From assembly GCF_003019035.1 (NCBI RefSeq), contig NZ_CP027447.1: DNA of 64,000 nucleotides; one strand, given 5' to 3'. Below, in pieces: positions 1,578 to 26,378 of this stretch. Numbering within the stretch: the first letter of the stretch is position 1; every line of letters starts with the position of its first letter. This DNA is from Escherichia coli. Lineage in GTDB: Bacteria; Pseudomonadota; Gammaproteobacteria; Enterobacterales; Enterobacteriaceae. The notes beneath the pieces are model-generated. The model was not told the DNA's origin. It saw nothing but the letters and a program-made list of their open reading frames with translations, and searched no databases. Made by a program: the position numbers and the translations under genes.

Positions 1578-2981
1578 TTAAACAATGCGAAACGCATCGA
1601 CTAATACACAGCGACGCAGACGGACAAACGTCCGCGCGCTGGTTACCCCTTCACCGGTTGGCGTGGTGATGGTCATCGTGGTCCAGCCTTCCCCGCCCAG
1701 CCCCAGCCCGGCAATGCACGGTCCGTTCTTAACGAAAATGCTGGTATCAATGGCGTTCGCCATCTGGTTCATGTTTTCGATGTTGCGCGAGTGCATTGCC
1801 GCCGTGTGGTGGCAACCGCCTTCCAGTTTCACCGCCAGCGCAATGGCATCCGCCACGTTGGCGACGCGCACGACGGGCAGCACCGGCATCATCAGTTCAG
1901 TCACAGCAAACGGATGTTCTGCGGTGGTTTCTACAAACAGCAGTCGCGTTTGTTCCGGAACTTTAAGGCCGATTGCCGCCGCGATTTTCGCCGCATCGCG
2001 ACCAACCCAGTCACGGCTGACGGTGCCTTTTCCGCACTCGTCGATATTTTTCAGCAACACCGATTGCAGTTGCTGCGCCTGCTCTGCGGTCAGTTTCACC
2101 GCATGCTGGCCTTCCATCAGACGCATCAGTTCATCGGCTACGCTATCAACAACAATCAGTACCTTTTCGTCGGCACAAATGATGTTGTTATCGAAAGACG
2201 CGCCTTTGACGATGGACTGAGCAGCACGGGCGAGGTCGGCGGTTTCATCCACCACTACCGGCGGGTTGCCAGCGCCTGCGGCAATCAGACGTTTATTGGT
2301 GTGTTTACGCGCCGCTTCCACTACCGCTTCGCCGCCGGTCACCACCAGCAGGCCGATACCCGGGAACTTGAACAAACGTTGCGCGGTTTCGATATCCGGA
2401 TTGGCCACAGTAACCAGTAAGTTTTCCGGCCCGCCTGCGGCAACAATCGCCTGGTTGAGCAGCGTAATCGCCCGCTGGGAGACTTTTTTCGCCGCCGGAT
2501 GCGGGGCAAAAATGACGCTGTTGCCCGCGGCAATCAGGCTGATGGCGTTGTTAATTACGGTTGCCGCCGGGTTAGTGGAAGGCGTCACCGAAGCCACCAC
2601 GCCCCAGGGCGCGTTTTCAATCAGGGTCAGGCCGTTGTCACCGGTCAGCACCTGTGGTGAGAGGCACTCAACGCCTGGTGTGCCGCGCGCCTGAGCGACG
2701 TTTTTGGCAAATTTATCTTCAACGCGCCCCATGCCGGTTTCACTGACGGCAAGTTCCGCTAAATCTCTGGCGTGTTTTTCGCCTGCCTCACGAATGGCAG
2801 CAATGGCTAACTGGCGCATTGCCACGCTTTTTAACCCTTGCTGGGCGACTTTGGCTGCCGCAACGGCGTCATCCAGGGACGCGAAAACGCCCATCTCATG
2901 AACGGCGGCGGGCGGCGTGTCACTGCTTTGCATTTTCAGCAGTACCGCTTTCACCACCTGTTCAATATCCTGTTGATTCAT
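1578..2981 (-). CDS. eutE: Acetaldehyde dehydrogenase (acetylating) EutE
   Basis: 467-aa ORF, aldehyde dehydrogenase family; operon context. Confidence 0.94.
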   Translation of the reverse strand: MNQQDIEQVVKAVLLKMQSSDTPPAAVHEMGVFASLDDAVAAAKVAQQGLKSVAMRQLAIAAIREAGEKHARDLAELAVSETGMGRVEDKFAKNVAQARGTPGVECLSPQVLTGDNGLTLIENAPWGVVASVTPSTNPAATVINNAISLIAAGNSVIFAPHPAAKKVSQRAITLLNQAIVAAGGPENLLVTVANPDIETAQRLFKFPGIGLLVVTGGEAVVEAARKHTNKRLIAAGAGNPPVVVDETADLARAAQSIVKGASFDNNIICADEKVLIVVDSVADELMRLMEGQHAVKLTAEQAQQLQSVLLKNIDECGKGTVSRDWVGRDAAKIAAAIGLKVPEQTRLLFVETTAEHPFAVTELMMPVLPVVRVANVADAIALAVKLEGGCHHTAAMHSRNIENMNQMANAIDTSIFVKNGPCIAGLGLGGEGWTTMTITTPTGEGVTSARTFVRLRRCVLVDAFRIV

Positions 2982-2992
2982 GATGTTCTGCC

Positions 2993-3280
2993 TTATTTGT
3001 GGAAAATGACCTGACCGCCAGACACCACCTCATCGACGATGCCAATCACGCACAGATCGACCGGTGACGTTTCGCTTTTATGCGCCTGGCGGGCGGAACT
3101 GCCACTCACCAGCAACACCCACTCCCCGGTTCCCGCGCCAATATTGTCGATGGCGACGGCGCATTGCCCGTCAGGATTACCTTGTGGATCAATCATTTCC
3201 ACCATCAGCAATTTGTCATGCGCCAGTCCGTGATGGCGTACGGTACAAACAATTTGTCCAGTGACGACTGCCAGTTTCAT
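2993..3280 (-). CDS. eutN: Microcompartment vertex protein EutN
   Basis: 95-aa ORF, EutN/CcmL-like; operon context. Confidence 0.92.
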   Translation of the reverse strand: MKLAVVTGQIVCTVRHHGLAHDKLLMVEMIDPQGNPDGQCAVAIDNIGAGTGEWVLLVSGSSARQAHKSETSPVDLCVIGIVDEVVSGGQVIFHK

Positions 3281-3386
3281 ACCCGCCTCCGTGGCGTATT
3301 TCAGGTAAAAGCTCCCCCTACCCTCCGCAGAAGGTAAAATGAAAAAGGAGAGAGCGTGACGCCCGAATCGACGTCACACAGGGTGA

Positions 3387-3680
3387 TTACAGGTTGCTGC
3401 TATCGCCTTTCAGGCCGATCGGGAAGACTTCTTCCAGGTCGCCGTGCGGACGCGGGATAACGTGTACAGATACCAGCTCGCCGATACGCTGTGCCGCTGC
3501 GGCACCTGCATCGGTCGCGGCTTTACAGGCTGCAACATCACCACGAACCATGGCAGTACACAGGCCGCCGCCAATCTGCTTAACACCAACCAGCTTGACG
3601 CGCGCAGCTTTAACCATCGCGTCAGAAGCCTCAATCAGTGCAACCAGGCCCCGGGTTTCGATCATTCCTAATGCTTCCAT
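3387..3680 (-). CDS. eutM: Microcompartment shell protein EutM (BMC domain)
   Basis: BMC-domain sequence [11 protein letters not shown]...; start placed at the internal Met giving 97 aa (ORF track extends to 3722). Confidence 0.9.
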
Positions 3681-3718
3681 TGTGCTTTCCTCTTTATCAG
3701 GGTCCAGAACGGGACCGT

Positions 3719-4735
3719 TCATTCAACCAGTGTTTGTAAACTGCTTTCGCGGTTCACTTCTGTCTGACGCGGCACAGCTGCCACCAGCGCCAGTTCGATA
3801 ATTTCCTGCACGCTACAACCACGAGAGAGATCGTGCATCGGCGCGGCAAGTCCTTGTATCAATGGCCCGACGGCACGATATCCGCCAAGTCGTTGTGCGA
3901 TTTTGTAGCCAATATTTCCGGCTTCCAGCGACGGAAAAACCATCACATTGGCCTTGCCTTGTAGCGGGCTGGCAGGCGCTTTTTGCGCCGCCACTTCCGG
4001 CACGAAGGCGGCGTCAAACTGCAACTCGCCATCGACAACCAGCTTTGGTGCGCGCTCACGGACGATTTCTGTCGCCTGCTGCACGTTGGCAACGCAGGGG
4101 TGACGGGCACTACCGTTGCTGGAAAACGACAGCATCGCCACGCGCGGTTCTTCTCCGGTGATGGCGCGCCAGGTTTCGGCGCTGGCAAGCGCGATATCCG
4201 CCAACTGCGCCGCCGTCGGCTGTGGCACCACGCTGCAATCGGCAAAACCCAACGCCGGACCGCTGTACTGTGGCAGCATCAGGAAAATGGATGAGAGCGT
4301 TTTACAGCCTGGCTGCAAGCCAATAATGCGTAATCCGGCACGCAGCACATTCGCCGTGGAAGAGAGGTTGCCCGCGATACAGACATCCGCTTTACCGGCG
4401 CTGACCATTGCTGCGGCGAACATCAGCGGGTCGGTAAGTTTTTCCAGCGCATCCGGCGGCGTTTTTTCGCCCGCGCGGGCCAGCCAGCGATGAGCAAATT
4501 CTTCCCGCATTGCGAGGTTGCCATGCGGATCAATCACCTGTAGCCCGTCCATCGCCACGCCATGACTGAGCGCAAACTGACGAAGTTCAAACGGATTGGC
4601 GACCAGAATGGGCGTTGCCAGACCTTGTTGATGTAAATATTGCGCAGCTTTCAGCACACGTTGATCTAACGCATCCGGAAAAACTACTCTGGCGGGCGCT
4701 CGCAACGCCAGTTCACGACAACGTTTAATAATCAT
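3719..4735 (-). CDS. eutD: Phosphotransacetylase EutD
   Basis: 338-aa ORF, PTA family; operon context. Confidence 0.93.
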
Positions 4736-6699: not shown

Positions 6700-7035
6700 T
6701 TAACTTTTGGTCATTTCACAAAGCGTATAATTTAATAAGCGTCCTAAACCACTGACGGTTTGTGATAACGCTTCTTCTACTGCGCCCACCGAGCCATAAA
6801 TCACCAGCGCGCCGCTAAAACGGTCGAGAAAACCGATATGCACATCGGCGGCTTTCAACGCTAAATCACCGGCGATCATCGCCGTTTCTCCGGGAGTTAG
6901 CGTCATAATGCCGATTGCGCCCGCATCCGGAACGCCGATTTTCTTCGCCAGTTCCTCGCCGGGATGCGCGATGAGATGCGCCAGTGTGACCTGTTTACCG
7001 GGCACAAATTCCTGAATGATGCGTTCTTTATCCAT
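6700..7035 (-). CDS. eutS: Microcompartment shell protein EutS (permuted BMC domain)
   Basis: Start placed at [10 protein letters not shown] giving 111 aa (ORF track extends to 7107); first gene of the eut operon. Confidence 0.9.
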
Positions 7036-7400
7036 GAGTCGCCGCCTGTGAAAAACTTTCGTGTATCGTGACAATTTTTCGTCAGAGTAAATAACAAAAT
7101 TCGGCAAGCGCGTTTAAAAGGTGAGGTAGATCACTAAGAATGGAGAGATATTTTATGTTAAGAAAAAAAACATACATTGTATGAATATAAACGGGAACCA
7201 ATAAGTTTTGTTTATCATATGTACTACAACATCTTTTAATAATCCCTCGAATCACCCGACGTTGTATTTTTAATAATTAGCAGAATACATATTTAATGTA
7301 CTGTTGTATTCTGAAAAATATTATTATCTTCACCCCATTTAAAATACATCTTACGCGATGATTTTATTCAGGAAATAAATAAAATGGATGGATCCCTGGA
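7036..7400. promoter_or_regulatory. Divergent AT-rich control region: eut operon promoter (minus strand, upstream of eutS) and promoter/leader of the inserted glycosyltransferase gene (plus strand)
   Basis: Non-coding, very AT-rich stretch between divergent genes; the eut main promoter lies upstream of eutS in enterobacteria; exact -35/-10 elements not assigned. Confidence 0.5.
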
Positions 7401-8471
7401 ATGAAAATTCACTACCTTGTCACCACCCTCGAAGCGGGAGGCGCTGAATTTGCGATTCCTGATATTGTGACTACTCTGCAAGACCTTGGTCATGAGGTGA
7501 AAATTTATGTCTGTGAACCCCGCGATATGGGAGCAGCGCCTCGTCTGGAAGCCGCTGGATTATCCTGGTGTTTATTATCAAATCGGCGGCGTTCTGAACC
7601 CATGCTTGTAGCTGCTTATCTGGCAAAAATCATTCACGACAAACCCGATCTCATCTGGACTTCGTTAAGTTGGGGGACTCGTATTGGGCAATGGGTCGGC
7701 CGGCTTATGGGCATTCCTGTTATCAGTTTTAAACATAGCGCCAGCGTAAAACCAGCGACCTGGCGTATGCGCAACATGTCTCGTTTATGGATAGGAGATT
7801 CTGAAACCGTAGCTCAATACCTGCATGAAACCATGTTGATCCCGAAGCAACAAGTGCTGTGCTGGCCCTTTTTTCAGGCGAATCCGCAAGCTGCCCAAGC
7901 GCAAAACTGGGACGGGAAATCAGTTTTACAATTAGGCTCTGTTGGACGCCTGCATGAAGTTAAAAATTACGCTGGATTAATTACAGCACTCGCTTCGTTT
8001 GTAGATAAAAACCCGCAATTGCGCTCGCGAATCCGATTAACCATTCTCGGTGAAGGGCCTGAACAGGAAGCATTGCAAAAAACCATAACGCAACACGCGT
8101 TGGAGGATGTGGTTTGTTTAGCGGGTTTTTCTGCGGATGTCGAAAATTTTCTTGCCGGATTACATGTCTACATCCAGACCTCCCGCTACGAAGGGATGTG
8201 CCTCGCTGCACACGAAGCCATGAATGCAGGGCTTGCAATCATCACGACTCCTGTAGGCGAACTTAAAGAATCGGTAATAGATGGTCATACTGGATATACG
8301 CTTAATGGCGAGCTAACGCCAGCGCTGGAGGGTGTGCTTAACCGTATTTTAAGTGAACCCGAAGAATTAGAACGCTATGGGCAAAATGTGCGGCAGTATG
8401 TATTAGCGAAGTTCAGCCATGAAAATTTTGTCCAGTCTGCAATCAACATCGTCAATAGACTTATTCACTGA
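7401..8471 (+). CDS. GT-B fold glycosyltransferase (GT4-like), accessory gene
   Basis: 356-aa ORF; C-terminal retaining-GT signature (SRYEGMCLAAHEAMNAGLAIITTPVGELKESVIDGHTGY, an E-x7-E-like motif); no signal peptide; weak ribosome-binding site. Confidence 0.8.
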   Translation: MKIHYLVTTLEAGGAEFAIPDIVTTLQDLGHEVKIYVCEPRDMGAAPRLEAAGLSWCLLSNRRRSEPMLVAAYLAKIIHDKPDLIWTSLSWGTRIGQWVGRLMGIPVISFKHSASVKPATWRMRNMSRLWIGDSETVAQYLHETMLIPKQQVLCWPFFQANPQAAQAQNWDGKSVLQLGSVGRLHEVKNYAGLITALASFVDKNPQLRSRIRLTILGEGPEQEALQKTITQHALEDVVCLAGFSADVENFLAGLHVYIQTSRYEGMCLAAHEAMNAGLAIITTPVGELKESVIDGHTGYTLNGELTPALEGVLNRILSEPEELERYGQNVRQYVLAKFSHENFVQSAINIVNRLIH

Positions 8472-8484
8472 ACAAGGCAGAAAA

Positions 8485-9387
8485 ATGAATTGCTATACCA
8501 CCGATCTTTGGCAGATAGGCATTGTTCAGGCCCCCATACAGCACATTGTTGCTTCTGGCAGTTTGGATGGCTTCAGGATTAAATGGATTACCCCGGATAA
8601 ATCACTCACTTTTCTTGCCGATCCTTTCGGTCTGTGGAAAAAAGGGGTTCTCTATCTTTTCGCGGAATCCTACGATTATCGGACTCGTCGTGGCGATATT
8701 ATCGCTTATAAGCTCAATGCTGACCTGGACGTCATTGAGCAACGAACTGTGCTACAAGAACCCTGGCATCTTTCTTATCCTTTTGTGTTTGAAGCCGATA
8801 ACGAAATCTGGATGTTACCTGAAGGATATAAATCAGGTACGCTAACGTTGTACCGCGCTATAGAGTTTCCCTGGCGATGGGAAAAGGTGCCAGATTTTTC
8901 ATTCCCTTGCGCTGCCATTGATGCCACCCCCTTTTACGCACAAGGAAAATGGTGGATGTTTTATACTCCCCCACTACCAAAGGCAGCCAGGACGGATACG
9001 TTAATGCTCGCTCATGCCCCCCATTTTATGGGGCCATGGGAAAACGTCCTGCAAACTGCCGCGCACAGGAATAAAAGCGGCGCGCGTATGGGCGGAACAC
9101 CATTTGATCATGATGGGCAAATTTTCTTACCAACACAAGATTGCAGCCGAACCTACGGTGGCGCATTGCAGATGCTGACACTAGACCCACAACGTTTATT
9201 AACTCCAGAATTTGCTGCCTCTGTGCGCCTGGAAGTGCCTGCAAGTGCCGCGCCTTTTATTGCTGGCATGCATACGCTTTCTGGCGTTGGCGACGTAACA
9301 TTCATTGATGCCAAGCGACACCTTAAAGGTTCGCCTCAGCGATTATGGGTGGATTTGCAGCGGCGGATACAGAAGTGGATCAGCTAA
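8485..9387 (+). CDS. Uncharacterized protein, probable five-bladed beta-propeller glycoside hydrolase/phosphorylase-like (GH43/GH130-type fold, inferred)
   Basis: 301 aa from the ATG at 8485 (ORF track starts earlier at 8419); N-terminal blade-like motif FLADPFGLWKKGVLYLFAE with conserved Asp/Glu and many Trp/Tyr/Phe; no signal peptide; 13 nt after the glycosyltransferase stop. Confidence 0.65.
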   Translation: MNCYTTDLWQIGIVQAPIQHIVASGSLDGFRIKWITPDKSLTFLADPFGLWKKGVLYLFAESYDYRTRRGDIIAYKLNADLDVIEQRTVLQEPWHLSYPFVFEADNEIWMLPEGYKSGTLTLYRAIEFPWRWEKVPDFSFPCAAIDATPFYAQGKWWMFYTPPLPKAARTDTLMLAHAPHFMGPWENVLQTAAHRNKSGARMGGTPFDHDGQIFLPTQDCSRTYGGALQMLTLDPQRLLTPEFAASVRLEVPASAAPFIAGMHTLSGVGDVTFIDAKRHLKGSPQRLWVDLQRRIQKWIS

Positions 9388-9390
9388 ACC

Positions 9391-9416
9391 GCTTACCCTG
9401 AATATTCAGGGTAAGC
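9391..9416. terminator. Perfect 26-bp palindrome (GCTTACCCTGAATATTCAGGGTAAGC), likely bidirectional terminator between the convergent accessory gene and maeB
   Basis: Exact inverted repeat read directly from the sequence, between two converging stop codons; no strong U-tract. Confidence 0.5.
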
Positions 9417-9434
9417 GTGAGAGTTAAGAATGAA

Positions 9435-11714
9435 TTACAGCGGTTGGGTTTGCGCTTCAACCACAGCCAGCGCCACCATGTTGACGATACGACGTACCGA
9501 TGCGATCGGCGTTAACACGTGAACCGGTTTCGCCACGCCCATCAGCACCGGACCGACAGTCACACCTTCCGAGCTGGAAACGCGCAGTAAGTTGTAACTA
9601 ATGCGGGCAGCTTCCATGTTCGGCATCACCAGAATATTAGCGGAACCTTTCAAAGGGCTGTCCGGCATACGGTCGTTGCGAATCGCTTCCACCAGCGCTG
9701 CATCGCCGTGCATTTCACCATCAATCATCAGTTCTGGCGCACGTTCCCTGACCAGTTCCAGCGCCTGACGCATTTTGCTCGACGACGGGCAGTCAGAAGA
9801 ACCAAAGTTGGAGTGCGACAACAGAGCCACACGCGGTTCAATACCAAAACGACGAACAGTTTCTGCCGCCATCAAGGTGATCTCCGCCAGCTCTTCTGCA
9901 TCAGGCTCATCATTGACGTAGGTATCGGCAATAAAGGTGTTACCACTCGGCAACAGCAGCGCGTTCATTGCACCTGCGGTGTGAACGCCATCGCGATAAC
10001 CAAAGACATTTTTCACCACGCTAAAGTGTTCATGATAATCGCCCACCGTACCGCAAATCATTGCATCGGCTTCGCCACGCTGAACCATGATCGCGCCGAT
10101 CACTGTCGGGTTACTGATCAGCGCACGCTGCGCCTGCTCCTGAGTGACACCGCGACGCTTCATGATCTGGAAGTATTCGGTCCAGTACTCTTTAAAGCGC
10201 GGATCGGATTCGTTATTGACGATCTCAAAATCAACACCCGCTTTGATCTGCAAGCCCAGTTTCTGAATGCGCATTTCGATCACGTTCGGACGACCAATAA
10301 GAATCGGTTTCGCCAGTCCCAGCGTTACCAGTTCCTGAGTGGCATGCAGAACGCGCGCCTCTTCCCCTTCCGGCAGAACGACGCGCTTCGGCGCTTTGCG
10401 AGCCTGGGAGAAAATCGGCTTCATAAACAGGTTGGTTTTGTAAACGAACTCCGTCAGCTTGTCGATGTAGACGTCGAAATCAGCAATCGGACGCGTCGCC
10501 ACGCCAGACTCCATCGCCGCTTTCGCCACCGCTGGAGCGATCTTAACGATCAAGCGCGGATCAAACGGTTTTGGAATGATGTATTCCGGACCAAAGCTCA
10601 GATCCTGATCGCCATACGCTGAAGCCACCACTTCACTCTGTTCCGCATGGGCCAGTTCTGCAATCGCGCGTACTGCCGCCAGTTTCATCTCTTCGTTGAT
10701 GGCGGTTGCGCCAACGTCCAGCGCGCCACGGAAGATAAACGGGAAGCAAAGGACGTTGTTCACCTGGTTCGGGTAGTCGGAACGGCCGGTACAGATGATG
10801 GCATCCGGACGCACTTCTTTCGCCAGCGGCGGCAGAATTTCCGGTTCCGGATTCGCCAGCGCCAGGATCATTGGTGCCCGAGCCATTTTCTTCACCATTT
10901 CCTGGGTCAGCACTTTCGGGCCGGAACAACCCAGGAAAATATCCGCGCCTTCAATCACATCATCGAGGGTACGTTTGCCGTCATCCACCACCGCATATGC
11001 GGCTTTGGTTTCCGCCATATTTGGCTCACGGCCCTGATAGATAACGCCTTTTGAATCACAAACCACGATGTTATGTTTTTGCAGCCCCAGCGCCACCAGC
11101 AGGTTCATACAGGCGATTGCTGCTGCACCCGCGCCGGAAACCACCATCCGCACGTCGGAGATGTTTTTCTCCACCACGCGCAATCCGTTGAGGATGGCGG
11201 CAGTGCTGATAATTGCCGTGCCGTGCTGATCGTCGTGGAATACTGGAATATTCATCCGCTCGCGCAGTTTCTGTTCAATATAGAAACATTCTGGCGCTTT
11301 AATGTCTTCGAGGTTGATGCCGCCGAAGGTCGGTTCAAGCGCGGCGACGACTTCAATAAATTTGTCCGGGTCGAGTTCATCAACTTCAATGTCAAATACA
11401 TCAATCCCGGCGAATTTCTTAAACAGAACGCCCTTGCCTTCCATCACCGGTTTGCCTGCCAGCGCGCCAATGTTGCCTAACCCCAGCACCGCCGTACCGT
11501 TAGAGATCACCGCCACCAGGTTACCACGCGCGGTATATTTGTAGGCTTTTAACGGGTCTTTTTCGATTTCAAGACAAGGTGCGGCAACGCCTGGTGAGTA
11601 GGCCAGCGCCAGATCGCGCTGCGTTGCCAGAGGCTTGGTTGGAGAAACCTGGATTTTCCCTGGAACTGGAAATTCATGGAAATCAAGTGCACTTTGTTTT
11701 AACTGGTCATCCAT
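9435..11714 (-). CDS. maeB: NADP-dependent malic enzyme MaeB (malic enzyme domain fused to PTA-like domain)
   Basis: 759-aa ORF starting [28 protein letters not shown]. Confidence 0.96.
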
Positions 11715-12002
11715 TTGGTTGTTCCTTTCACGTAACGTTCACAAATAAAGTGTGTGGGCAACAGCCCCTGCCCACAACGTGGCGCACATTATTACCCTGC
11801 CGGAGTCTACAGACTTTGAGCAAGTCCAAACTCTCACCATTAATATAATGTTTTGGTAATAATCCTATAACACTGATGTTACCTGCTTAATCCAGCAATA
11901 CCATGCCTGTCTGCTATGCTTTTTTGATGCGTTTAGCGAAATTTCTCAGAAGTGTGAATTAACGCACTCATCTAACACTTTACTTTTCAAGGAGTATTTC
12001 CT

Positions 12003-12953
12003 ATGAACGAGTTAGACGGCATCAAACAGTTCACCACTGTCGTGGCAGACAGCGGCGATATTGAGTCCATTCGCCATTATCATCCCCAGGATGCCACCAC
12101 CAATCCTTCGCTGTTACTCAAGGCTGCCGGATTATCACAATATGAGCATTTAATAGACGATGCTATCGCCTGGGGTAAAAAAAATGGCAAGACCCAGGAA
12201 CAACAGGTGGTCGCTGCATGTGACAAACTGGCGGTCAATTTCGGTACTGAAATTCTCAAAATCGTACCCGGTCGCGTGTCAACAGAAGTTGATGCACGCC
12301 TCTCTTTTGATAAAGAAAAGAGTATTGAGAAGGCGCGCCATCTGGTGGACTTGTATCAGCAACAAGGCGTTGAGAAATCACGCATTTTGATCAAGCTGGC
12401 TTCAACCTGGGAAGGAATTCGCGCGGCAGAAGAGCTGGAAAAAGAAGGTATTAACTGCAACCTGACGCTGCTGTTTTCTTTTGCTCAGGCGCGGGCCTGT
12501 GCAGAAGCAGGCGTTTTTCTGATTTCGCCGTTTGTCGGGCGTATTTATGACTGGTATCAGGCGCGTAAGCCGATGGACCCGTATGTGGTGGAAGAAGATC
12601 CGGGCGTTAAGTCAGTGCGCAATATCTACGACTACTATAAGCAACACCACTACGAAACCATTGTAATGGGCGCGAGCTTCCGTCGCACCGAACAAATCCT
12701 CGCCTTAACCGGCTGCGACCGACTGACTATCGCACCGAATTTGCTGAAGGAGCTACAGGAAAAAGTTTCGCCAGTGGTACGTAAATTAATCCCATCTTCT
12801 CAGACGTTCCCACGCCCAGCTCCCATGAGCGAAGCGGAGTTCCGTTGGGAGCACAATCAGGATGCGATGGCGGTAGAAAAACTGTCTGAAGGCATTCGTC
12901 TATTCGCCGTTGATCAACGCAAACTGGAAGATCTTCTTGCCGCCAAACTATAA
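12003..12953 (+). CDS. talA: Transaldolase A
   Basis: 316-aa ORF, transaldolase family; followed by tktB as in K-12. Confidence 0.95.
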
Positions 12954-26312: not shown

Positions 26313-26378
26313 GTGGCCGGATAAGGCGTTAACGCCGCATCCGGCCATGATGCCTGATACAGTCTTATCAGACCTACC
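26313..26378. repeat. REP/BIME palindromic repeat elements
   Basis: GCCGGATAAGGCGTTAACGCCGCATCCGGC followed by a second REP-like GCCTGATACAGTCTTATCAGACCTAC. Confidence 0.8.

Follow-up and report, generated by a model that had tools for sequence, protein, structure and literature searches.

The question raised by this locus is what role is played by a long and perfect palindrome that lies between two stop codons, one belonging to maeB and the other to an accessory gene on the opposite strand. The window, i.e., the whole stretch of 64,000 nucleotides of Escherichia coli DNA that was analysed, contains at this point the eutQ-eutP-eutS / maeB / talA-tktB region, in which maeB and the eut genes are both encoded on the minus strand (Table 1). 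Based on the letters of the sequence, an earlier note had proposed three options for the palindrome, namely a bidirectional terminator, an RNA stability element or a protein-binding site. Among these options, an RNA-stability element at the 3' end fits best, considering the linkage to maeB, the wobble pairs in the maeB sense and the Rho dependence of the locus in K-12, all of which are described below. The reading that we consider somewhat better than an even bet is that the palindrome encodes a U-poor stem-loop by which the 3' end of the maeB mRNA is defined and protected, that Rho terminates transcription downstream of it, and that intrinsic termination or pausing has a weak share at most.

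The sequence GCTTACCCTGAATATTCAGGGTAAGC at window positions 9391-9416 is an exact palindrome, as had been claimed, and the perfect symmetry extends by one more C·G pair on each side of this 26-mer, giving a palindrome of 28 bp (CGCTTACCCTGAATATTCAGGGTAAGCG). The distances that had been given were also correct: the 26-mer begins at the fourth base past the accessory stop codon TAA (9385-9387) and is 18 nt from the maeB stop codon (9435-9437, minus strand). The description as an 11-bp stem around AATATT needs to be revised, since the RNA form is a 12-bp stem, with 7 G·C pairs, closed by a 4-nt loop (AUAU); a stable, G+C-containing stem-loop is thus located directly 3' of maeB. The calculation of the folding energy, which had been suggested as a check, revealed a stable hairpin of -20.4 kcal/mol for the 28-bp palindrome on either strand (z = -7.8), and 0 of 200 shuffled sequences were as stable. 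The palindrome was rightly regarded as uncommon for its length: the chance expectation in 64 kb is ~0.001 for at least 26 bp and 0.0002 for at least 28 bp, and the perfect palindromes ranking next in length in the 64-kb window are 14 bp long. A chance origin was rejected on this expectation and because 0 of 100 shuffles matched.

Table 1. Coordinates of the features at the maeB 3' end and in the adjoining islet (window positions; a dot denotes a feature without strand).
Feature	Position	Strand	Remarks
Part of the eutS-upstream block, TTGCCGAATTTTGTTATTTAC in maeB/eut sense	7087..7107	-	Conserved across genera; kept on the eutS side of the islet, apart from the palindrome
Islet, 2,228 bp	7153..9380	.	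GC 45.6% vs 52.4% in the window; replaces ~123 bp of the AT-rich core maeB-eutS spacer
Accessory gene 1, family-4 (GT4) glycosyltransferase	7401..8471	+	PF00534, E = 1.4e-29
Accessory gene 2, GINT1_N-domain protein	8419..9387	+	PF24793, E = 4e-35; stop 2 nt before the 28-bp palindrome; convergent with maeB
Core tail past the hairpin, maeB sense, GUUUAGCUG	9381..9389	-	Short 3-U run; complement is the accessory ORF TAA (9385-9387)
28-bp perfect palindrome	9390..9417	.	Putative 3' stem-loop of the maeB mRNA (minus strand); identical hairpin predicted in the plus-strand accessory transcript
Spacer between maeB stop codon and hairpin	9418..9434	-	17 nt; varies between lineages
maeB, NADP-dependent malic enzyme, 759 aa	9435..11714	-	ORF list; RefSeq annotation of the identical locus; transcript predicted to end at the hairpin

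The palindrome does not belong to a known repeat or RNA family according to the searches that were made. No second copy was present in the window when up to 3 mismatches were allowed, and the Rfam covariance models gave no relevant match in window 7000-12100 at E <= 10. A REP/BIME or another dispersed repeat was rejected as a candidate, since the palindrome occupies one locus per genome and is devoid of the REP consensus. REP elements in 3'UTRs limit read-through in a partly Rho-dependent manner and protect the upstream mRNA (bioRxiv 10.64898/2026.03.23.713779). The maeB hairpin is similar to them in being an extragenic palindromic hairpin of a 3'UTR that may sit between convergent genes, and it differs from them in the absence of the consensus and in its occurrence once per genome. 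The sole other hairpin-type palindrome that was found in the window, at 26314-26347, has arms of 20 nt with 90% complementarity (GCCGGATAAGGCG...CGCCGCATCCGGC) and looks like a REP element by its sequence.

The palindrome is a single-copy core element that is linked to maeB and not to the accessory genes. Searches with a query of 40 nt centred on the palindrome, in which "two places per genome" reflects the palindrome matching itself on both strands, located it at one locus, ~20 nt past the maeB stop codon, in 5,409 of the 5,426 complete E. coli genomes, and the 28-bp form was present in ~3,934 genomes. The presence in K-12, which had been named as a point to check, was confirmed: MG1655 contains the 26-bp form (NC_000913.3, 2576055-2576080), in which the terminal pair is C·A. 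The few genomes without the element include IS1-mediated deletions. Hairpin alleles like those of two divergent relatives, L006 and L007, were also sought within the E. coli collection, and none closer than ~90% was found.

The convergent arrangement in the window is brought about by an islet whose right junction is at 9380/9381. The islet contains two accessory ORFs that overlap by 53 nt, the second of which bears the PGAP name "glucosamine inositolphosphorylceramide transferase family", and no mobility gene (recombinase, transposase) was found in it. This islet form is present in ~90 of the 5,426 genomes. In islet-free genomes, the homology to the window starts at 9381, just outside the palindrome, and maeB, a spacer of ~290 bp and eutS follow one another in the same direction. 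The location "between converging stop codons" therefore applies to the window, where 47 nt separate the two stops, and to the minority of strains with the islet, but not elsewhere; because maeB and eut run co-directionally outside the ~90 genomes, the converging stops are a strain-specific circumstance. The palindrome as a part of the accessory islet was rejected, as nearly all islet-free genomes have the hairpin and the junction lies outside it. The accessory ORF enters the core sequence and stops at a TAA that is complementary to UUUA in the maeB-sense sequence past the hairpin. This shows how a palindromic 3' hairpin that is already in place can be put to use by an inserted islet, which even takes its stop codon from the complement of the U-run.

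Some further observations concern the islet and its surroundings. Strain SCU-172 (L093, NZ_CP054353.1) carries at 2505-4173 a diverged allele of the islet, with roughly 85% identity near the junction, in which the second gene has decayed to a 210-nt "hypothetical protein" ORF reading through the hairpin. The hairpin allele of this strain has an A>G change at position 19 (stem positions are numbered 1-28 in the maeB sense) in common with the cryptic-clade Escherichia L006, which suggests that the islet is old or was exchanged by recombination. In another genome (L089, NZ_CM136153.1, ~175-182), the insertion point of IS1 coincides exactly with the 3' base of the hairpin stem, and in a third (L004, NZ_CM132277.1, 748-1495), the hairpin has been deleted together with eutS and part of eutP in association with IS1; the spacer immediately past the hairpin appears to be a recurrent point of insertion and rearrangement. 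On the eutS side of the islet, the mechanical ORF list runs eutS to a TTG start at 7107 (window 7036-7107; 135 aa), and the RefSeq eutS is 336 nt long with its start at window 7035. The longer ORF, which overlaps the conserved eutS-upstream block, probably does not represent the real start.

Overlapping bidirectional terminators between convergent genes were reportedly described by Ju et al. in 2019. Applied to this locus, such a mechanism would mean that the hairpin in both transcripts pauses the polymerases arriving from both sides, and that head-on collisions end both transcripts. The arrangement in the window is suitable for it, as the palindrome forms an equally stable hairpin in both RNAs and is located in the gap of a convergent gene pair, here as in the ~90 genomes with this islet form. 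In the published model, hairpin elements between convergent E. coli genes were described as Rho-independent and as unlike intrinsic terminators in their appearance (bioRxiv 10.1101/2022.10.23.513370), and the maeB locus shares with these elements a hairpin palindrome in a short gap between convergent stops, without intrinsic tails. However, ~98% of the E. coli genomes keep the element with no convergent gene there, so a bidirectional role cannot explain its existence or its conservation. The locus differs from the published elements in that the convergence is confined to the islet minority, in that the maeB hairpin either is older than the islet or does not depend on it, and in its Rho dependence in K-12; moreover, the hairpin has no flanking A- or U-tracts, and its natural variants lose pairing in the plus-strand RNA and not in the maeB sense. 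We regard bidirectional termination as an improbable account of the palindrome, and what is left of that option of the earlier note is a secondary role in islet-bearing strains; A-tract/U-tract symmetry is absent.

The natural variation of the hairpin provides information on what has been selected. The hairpin is under purifying selection: in the divergent lineage L007, it showed 0 differences in 28 positions against 56 in 300 (19%) at maeB third-codon positions, and the flanks diverge on both sides. If the hairpin changed at the third-codon rate of L007, all 28 nt would remain unchanged with a probability of ~0.003. Changes in the stem were found in other genomes, including C>U at position 7 in L087 and L088, C>U at position 8 together with A>G at positions 12 and 19 and one additional nucleotide in the loop in L006, and A>G at position 19 with an opened closing pair in L093. 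At all four variable internal pairs, the maeB-sense RNA has a G·U wobble where the antisense RNA has an A·C mismatch, and the L006 allele folds with -16.3 kcal/mol in the sense RNA vs -7.5 kcal/mol in the antisense RNA. Because the stem variants keep their pairing, through G·U, only in the maeB sense, they point to selection on the maeB transcript. This evidence is modest: a wobble asymmetry in 4 of 4 internal events corresponds to P ~0.06, and K-12 has a terminal-pair polymorphism that runs the opposite way. Double compensatory changes were not seen in the stem, i.e., no pair was altered on both sides among the variants compared.

These variants also bear on whether the palindrome works at the DNA level, where it could serve as the operator of a dimeric regulator (e.g., one acting on eut or maeB) or be targeted by recombination or insertion. 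A perfect dyad symmetry of 28 bp is typical of operators, and both the islet junction and the IS1 insertion of L089 adjoin the hairpin. However, the half-sites and the spacing that a dimeric operator conserves in DNA are not retained in the relatives: in L006, one nucleotide is added at the dyad centre and three changes fall asymmetrically on the half-sites, and the centre of L093 is non-palindromic. The palindrome is unchanged in the window strain even though it lies there 2.2 kb from eutS. With regard to recombination, E. coli genomes contain no second copy, the islet has neither recombinase nor transposase, and IS1 favours AT-rich DNA, as the adjacent spacer is. A function of the DNA itself is accordingly given very little credence, and the protein-binding site of the earlier note is disfavoured by the same central insertion and half-site changes. 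The palindrome as a part of the conserved eut promoter block was likewise rejected, since this block is a separate sequence that occurs in other genera, such as Citrobacter and Klebsiella, without the palindrome.

The sequence that follows the stem agrees with the earlier statement that a clear U-tract is lacking: the tail reads GUUUAGCU in the maeB sense and UGAGAGUU in the plus sense. A canonical intrinsic terminator has a U-rich tract of 7-8 nt directly after the stem, and GUUUAGCU contains 4 U in 8. The site was not called by a terminator scan, either in the window or in K-12, the criterion of the scan being 5 T in the 8 nt after the stem, where the hairpin tail has 4. The tail consists of G and 2-4 U and varies with the lineage (GTTTAG, GTTTTA, GTTTTC, GTTTTG, GTTTGG and GTTAAG). 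The U-run of K-12 begins 2 nt beyond the last base pair, and L007 has a perfect hairpin yet a tail of only GTTAAG.

The termination of maeB transcripts in K-12 can be examined in published data. A Rho-termination region of MG1655 was reported at 2575860 on the minus strand, in the maeB-eutS spacer (Adams et al., 2021, PMC7815308, Supplementary file 2). The hairpin is ~195 nt upstream of this position and eutS begins 55 nt further on, although the coordinate is coarse, having been derived from 800-nt windows. The ratio of downstream to upstream reads was 21/161 in untreated cells and 140/195 with bicyclomycin (Rho score 5.5, p = 1.5e-13; PMC7815308), which corresponds to a read-through from maeB into eutS of 13% in untreated cells vs 72% under Rho inhibition. 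Hence, the K-12 locus does not show the Rho independence that characterizes a canonical intrinsic terminator, and Rho-dependent termination downstream of the stem-loop was found at the coarse resolution of these data. Because the read-through rises to 72% with bicyclomycin, most polymerases pass the hairpin in K-12 and are then halted by Rho, although some of the additional downstream reads in the presence of bicyclomycin could be due to transcription that is de-repressed and starts in the AT-rich spacer.

The same data weigh on the possibility that the palindrome is a weak but genuine intrinsic terminator of maeB, in which the strong hairpin and the short G-UUU(U) tail release the polymerase and Rho serves as a back-up. 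Nearly all E. coli variants retain 3-4 U directly past the stem (GTTTAG, GTTTTA, GTTTTC, GTTTTG), other genera have textbook intrinsic terminators as positional homologues, at the same distance from the maeB stop codon, and Dar and Sorek (2018, PMC6061677) explicitly allow for the possibility that such U-poor sites are transition states or intrinsic terminators of low efficiency. On the other side stand the read-through of ~72% into eutS once Rho is inhibited, a tail below 5 T in 8 nt, the displaced U-run of K-12 and the GTTAAG tail of L007. We judge intrinsic release with Rho in reserve to be unlikely, though it is the strongest of the alternatives.

Mapped transcript ends were also sought at the hairpin. 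The curated Term-seq tables of PMC7815308 for three conditions have no maeB entry and no 3' end at 2576xxx, and maeB is weakly expressed (161 reads per 800 nt) in that study. For a mapped maeB 3' end, there was likewise no maeB entry in PMC12207403 or in Supplementary file 1 of PMC7815308, and a literature search for a role of ProQ or of the 3'UTR in maeB returned nothing specific. Regarding the composition of the putative Rho substrate, the first 50 nt past the hairpin in the window, read in the maeB sense, are rich in C (0.34) and poor in G (0.16), i.e., rut-like, and are antisense to a coding gene; as judged from its composition, this stretch has the features of a typical Rho substrate. The first 100 nt downstream of the hairpin in K-12 are AT-rich with C about equal to G and are not rut-like, and C exceeds G only at 100-200 nt.

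A known class of elements resembles the maeB hairpin in most of these respects. On a genome-wide scale, it was reported that the steady-state ends of Rho-dependent transcripts are located just past stable stem-loops without U-rich tails, and that such stem-loops block PNPase and RNase II (PMC6061677). The maeB hairpin corresponds to this class in being a stable stem-loop soon past the stop codon, with an energy like that of intrinsic terminators and little uridine, in the downstream Rho-dependent read-through in K-12 and in the stretch with C>G past the hairpin in the window. It is unlike this class in that its stem is an unusually long perfect palindrome and that the downstream sequence in K-12 is AT-rich and not C-rich; the PMC7815308 tables contain no steady-state 3' end at the hairpin of the weakly expressed maeB.

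Based on this likeness, the favoured reading of a U-poor, end-protecting stem-loop can be put as a sequence of steps. RNA polymerase transcribing maeB on the minus strand would pass the stop codon, transcribe the hairpin 17 nt later and mostly continue, because only a short G+UUU tail follows; the hairpin may contribute pausing or weak intrinsic termination. Rho would then end transcription in the untranslated stretch downstream of the hairpin, which is the spacer before the eut operon in ordinary E. coli and the antisense of the accessory gene in the window strain. The 3'-to-5' exonucleases would shorten the RNA as far as the foot of the stable 12-bp stem, and in this way the mature 3' end would be set and protected and the mRNA stabilized. 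In the window strain, the convergent accessory transcript would gain the same hairpin 2 nt past its stop codon, because the sequence is a perfect palindrome, and one element would probably cap both the maeB and the accessory mRNAs.

Comparison with other genera places the hairpin in a wider context. The maeB 3' flanks of 80 species among the matches listed were compared, and E. albertii and E. fergusonii are not among these species. In Citrobacter, Klebsiella, Salmonella, Yokenella and Kluyvera, the same offset, ~20 nt past the maeB stop codon, is occupied by a textbook intrinsic terminator of unrelated sequence with a GC hairpin, for example GGCGCGGGTTTCTCCCGCGCC followed by TTTTTATT, and 6-7 of the 8 nt that follow the stem are T. 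The terminator is followed within ~10 nt by the eutS-upstream block in Citrobacter and Klebsiella. As other genera place a terminator at the same offset, with the eutS block next to it in these two genera, the sequence comparison suggests that the position is a conserved site at which maeB ends and eut is insulated. Escherichia has at this position a different, U-poor hairpin and an extra AT-rich spacer. The terminators of Citrobacter, Klebsiella, Salmonella and Yokenella are similar to the E. coli hairpin in position and have a comparable hairpin energy, and the same job, i.e., insulating the eut operon from maeB, is expected of both. The E. coli element differs from them in its unrelated and AT-richer sequence, its longer stem, 2-4 U vs 6-7, and its Rho dependence in K-12. 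The extra AT-rich segment of Escherichia between the hairpin and the eutS-upstream block, seen in K-12 at L086 1924-2054, is ~150 nt long (~77% A+T), and it is absent from L010-L029.

It has been proposed that terminators switch their mechanism in evolution via their U content (PMC6061677), and the difference between the genera at maeB looks like such a switch. The locus is a clean natural example of terminator turnover, with intrinsic terminators in Citrobacter, Klebsiella and Salmonella vs a U-poor hairpin with Rho in Escherichia. A bolder proposal, which we put forward as a long shot, is that Escherichia swapped the efficient intrinsic terminator of its relatives for a U-poor perfect palindrome and an AT-rich spacer, that the insulation of the costly eut operon thereby became tunable by Rho, and that the palindrome additionally serves as a collision-type bidirectional stop, and as a boundary beside which islets and IS1 insert, in strains that gained convergent genes. 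If this were true, the insulation of eut, an operon whose expression has to stay low (PMC11334477), would be conditional on translation and on the metabolic state.

The main value of the element lies in annotation, as it marks the end of the maeB transcript and the maeB/eut boundary. The element itself is previously undescribed as far as the literature examined shows, and the kind of element is well known. The maeB hairpin leaves the general understanding of bacterial termination unchanged and would not surprise a specialist; the lineage-specific swap of the terminator type after maeB, and an islet that adjoins and reuses the hairpin, are mildly interesting.

In addition, palindromic sequences of other kinds were observed 3' of maeB. 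In many Enterobacter, Leclercia, Lelliottia and Pluralibacter, the maeB 3' flank carries repeated palindromic units of the form CCCTCTCCC...GGGAGAGGG and no simple terminator, and in other species it carries REP-like GCCGGATAAGC units; flanks with such palindromic units are those of L033, L034, L046, L051, L054, L056-L058, L060, L062, L065, L069, L070 and L074. Judging by these sequences, the site 3' of maeB seems to have been colonised repeatedly by different palindromic elements.
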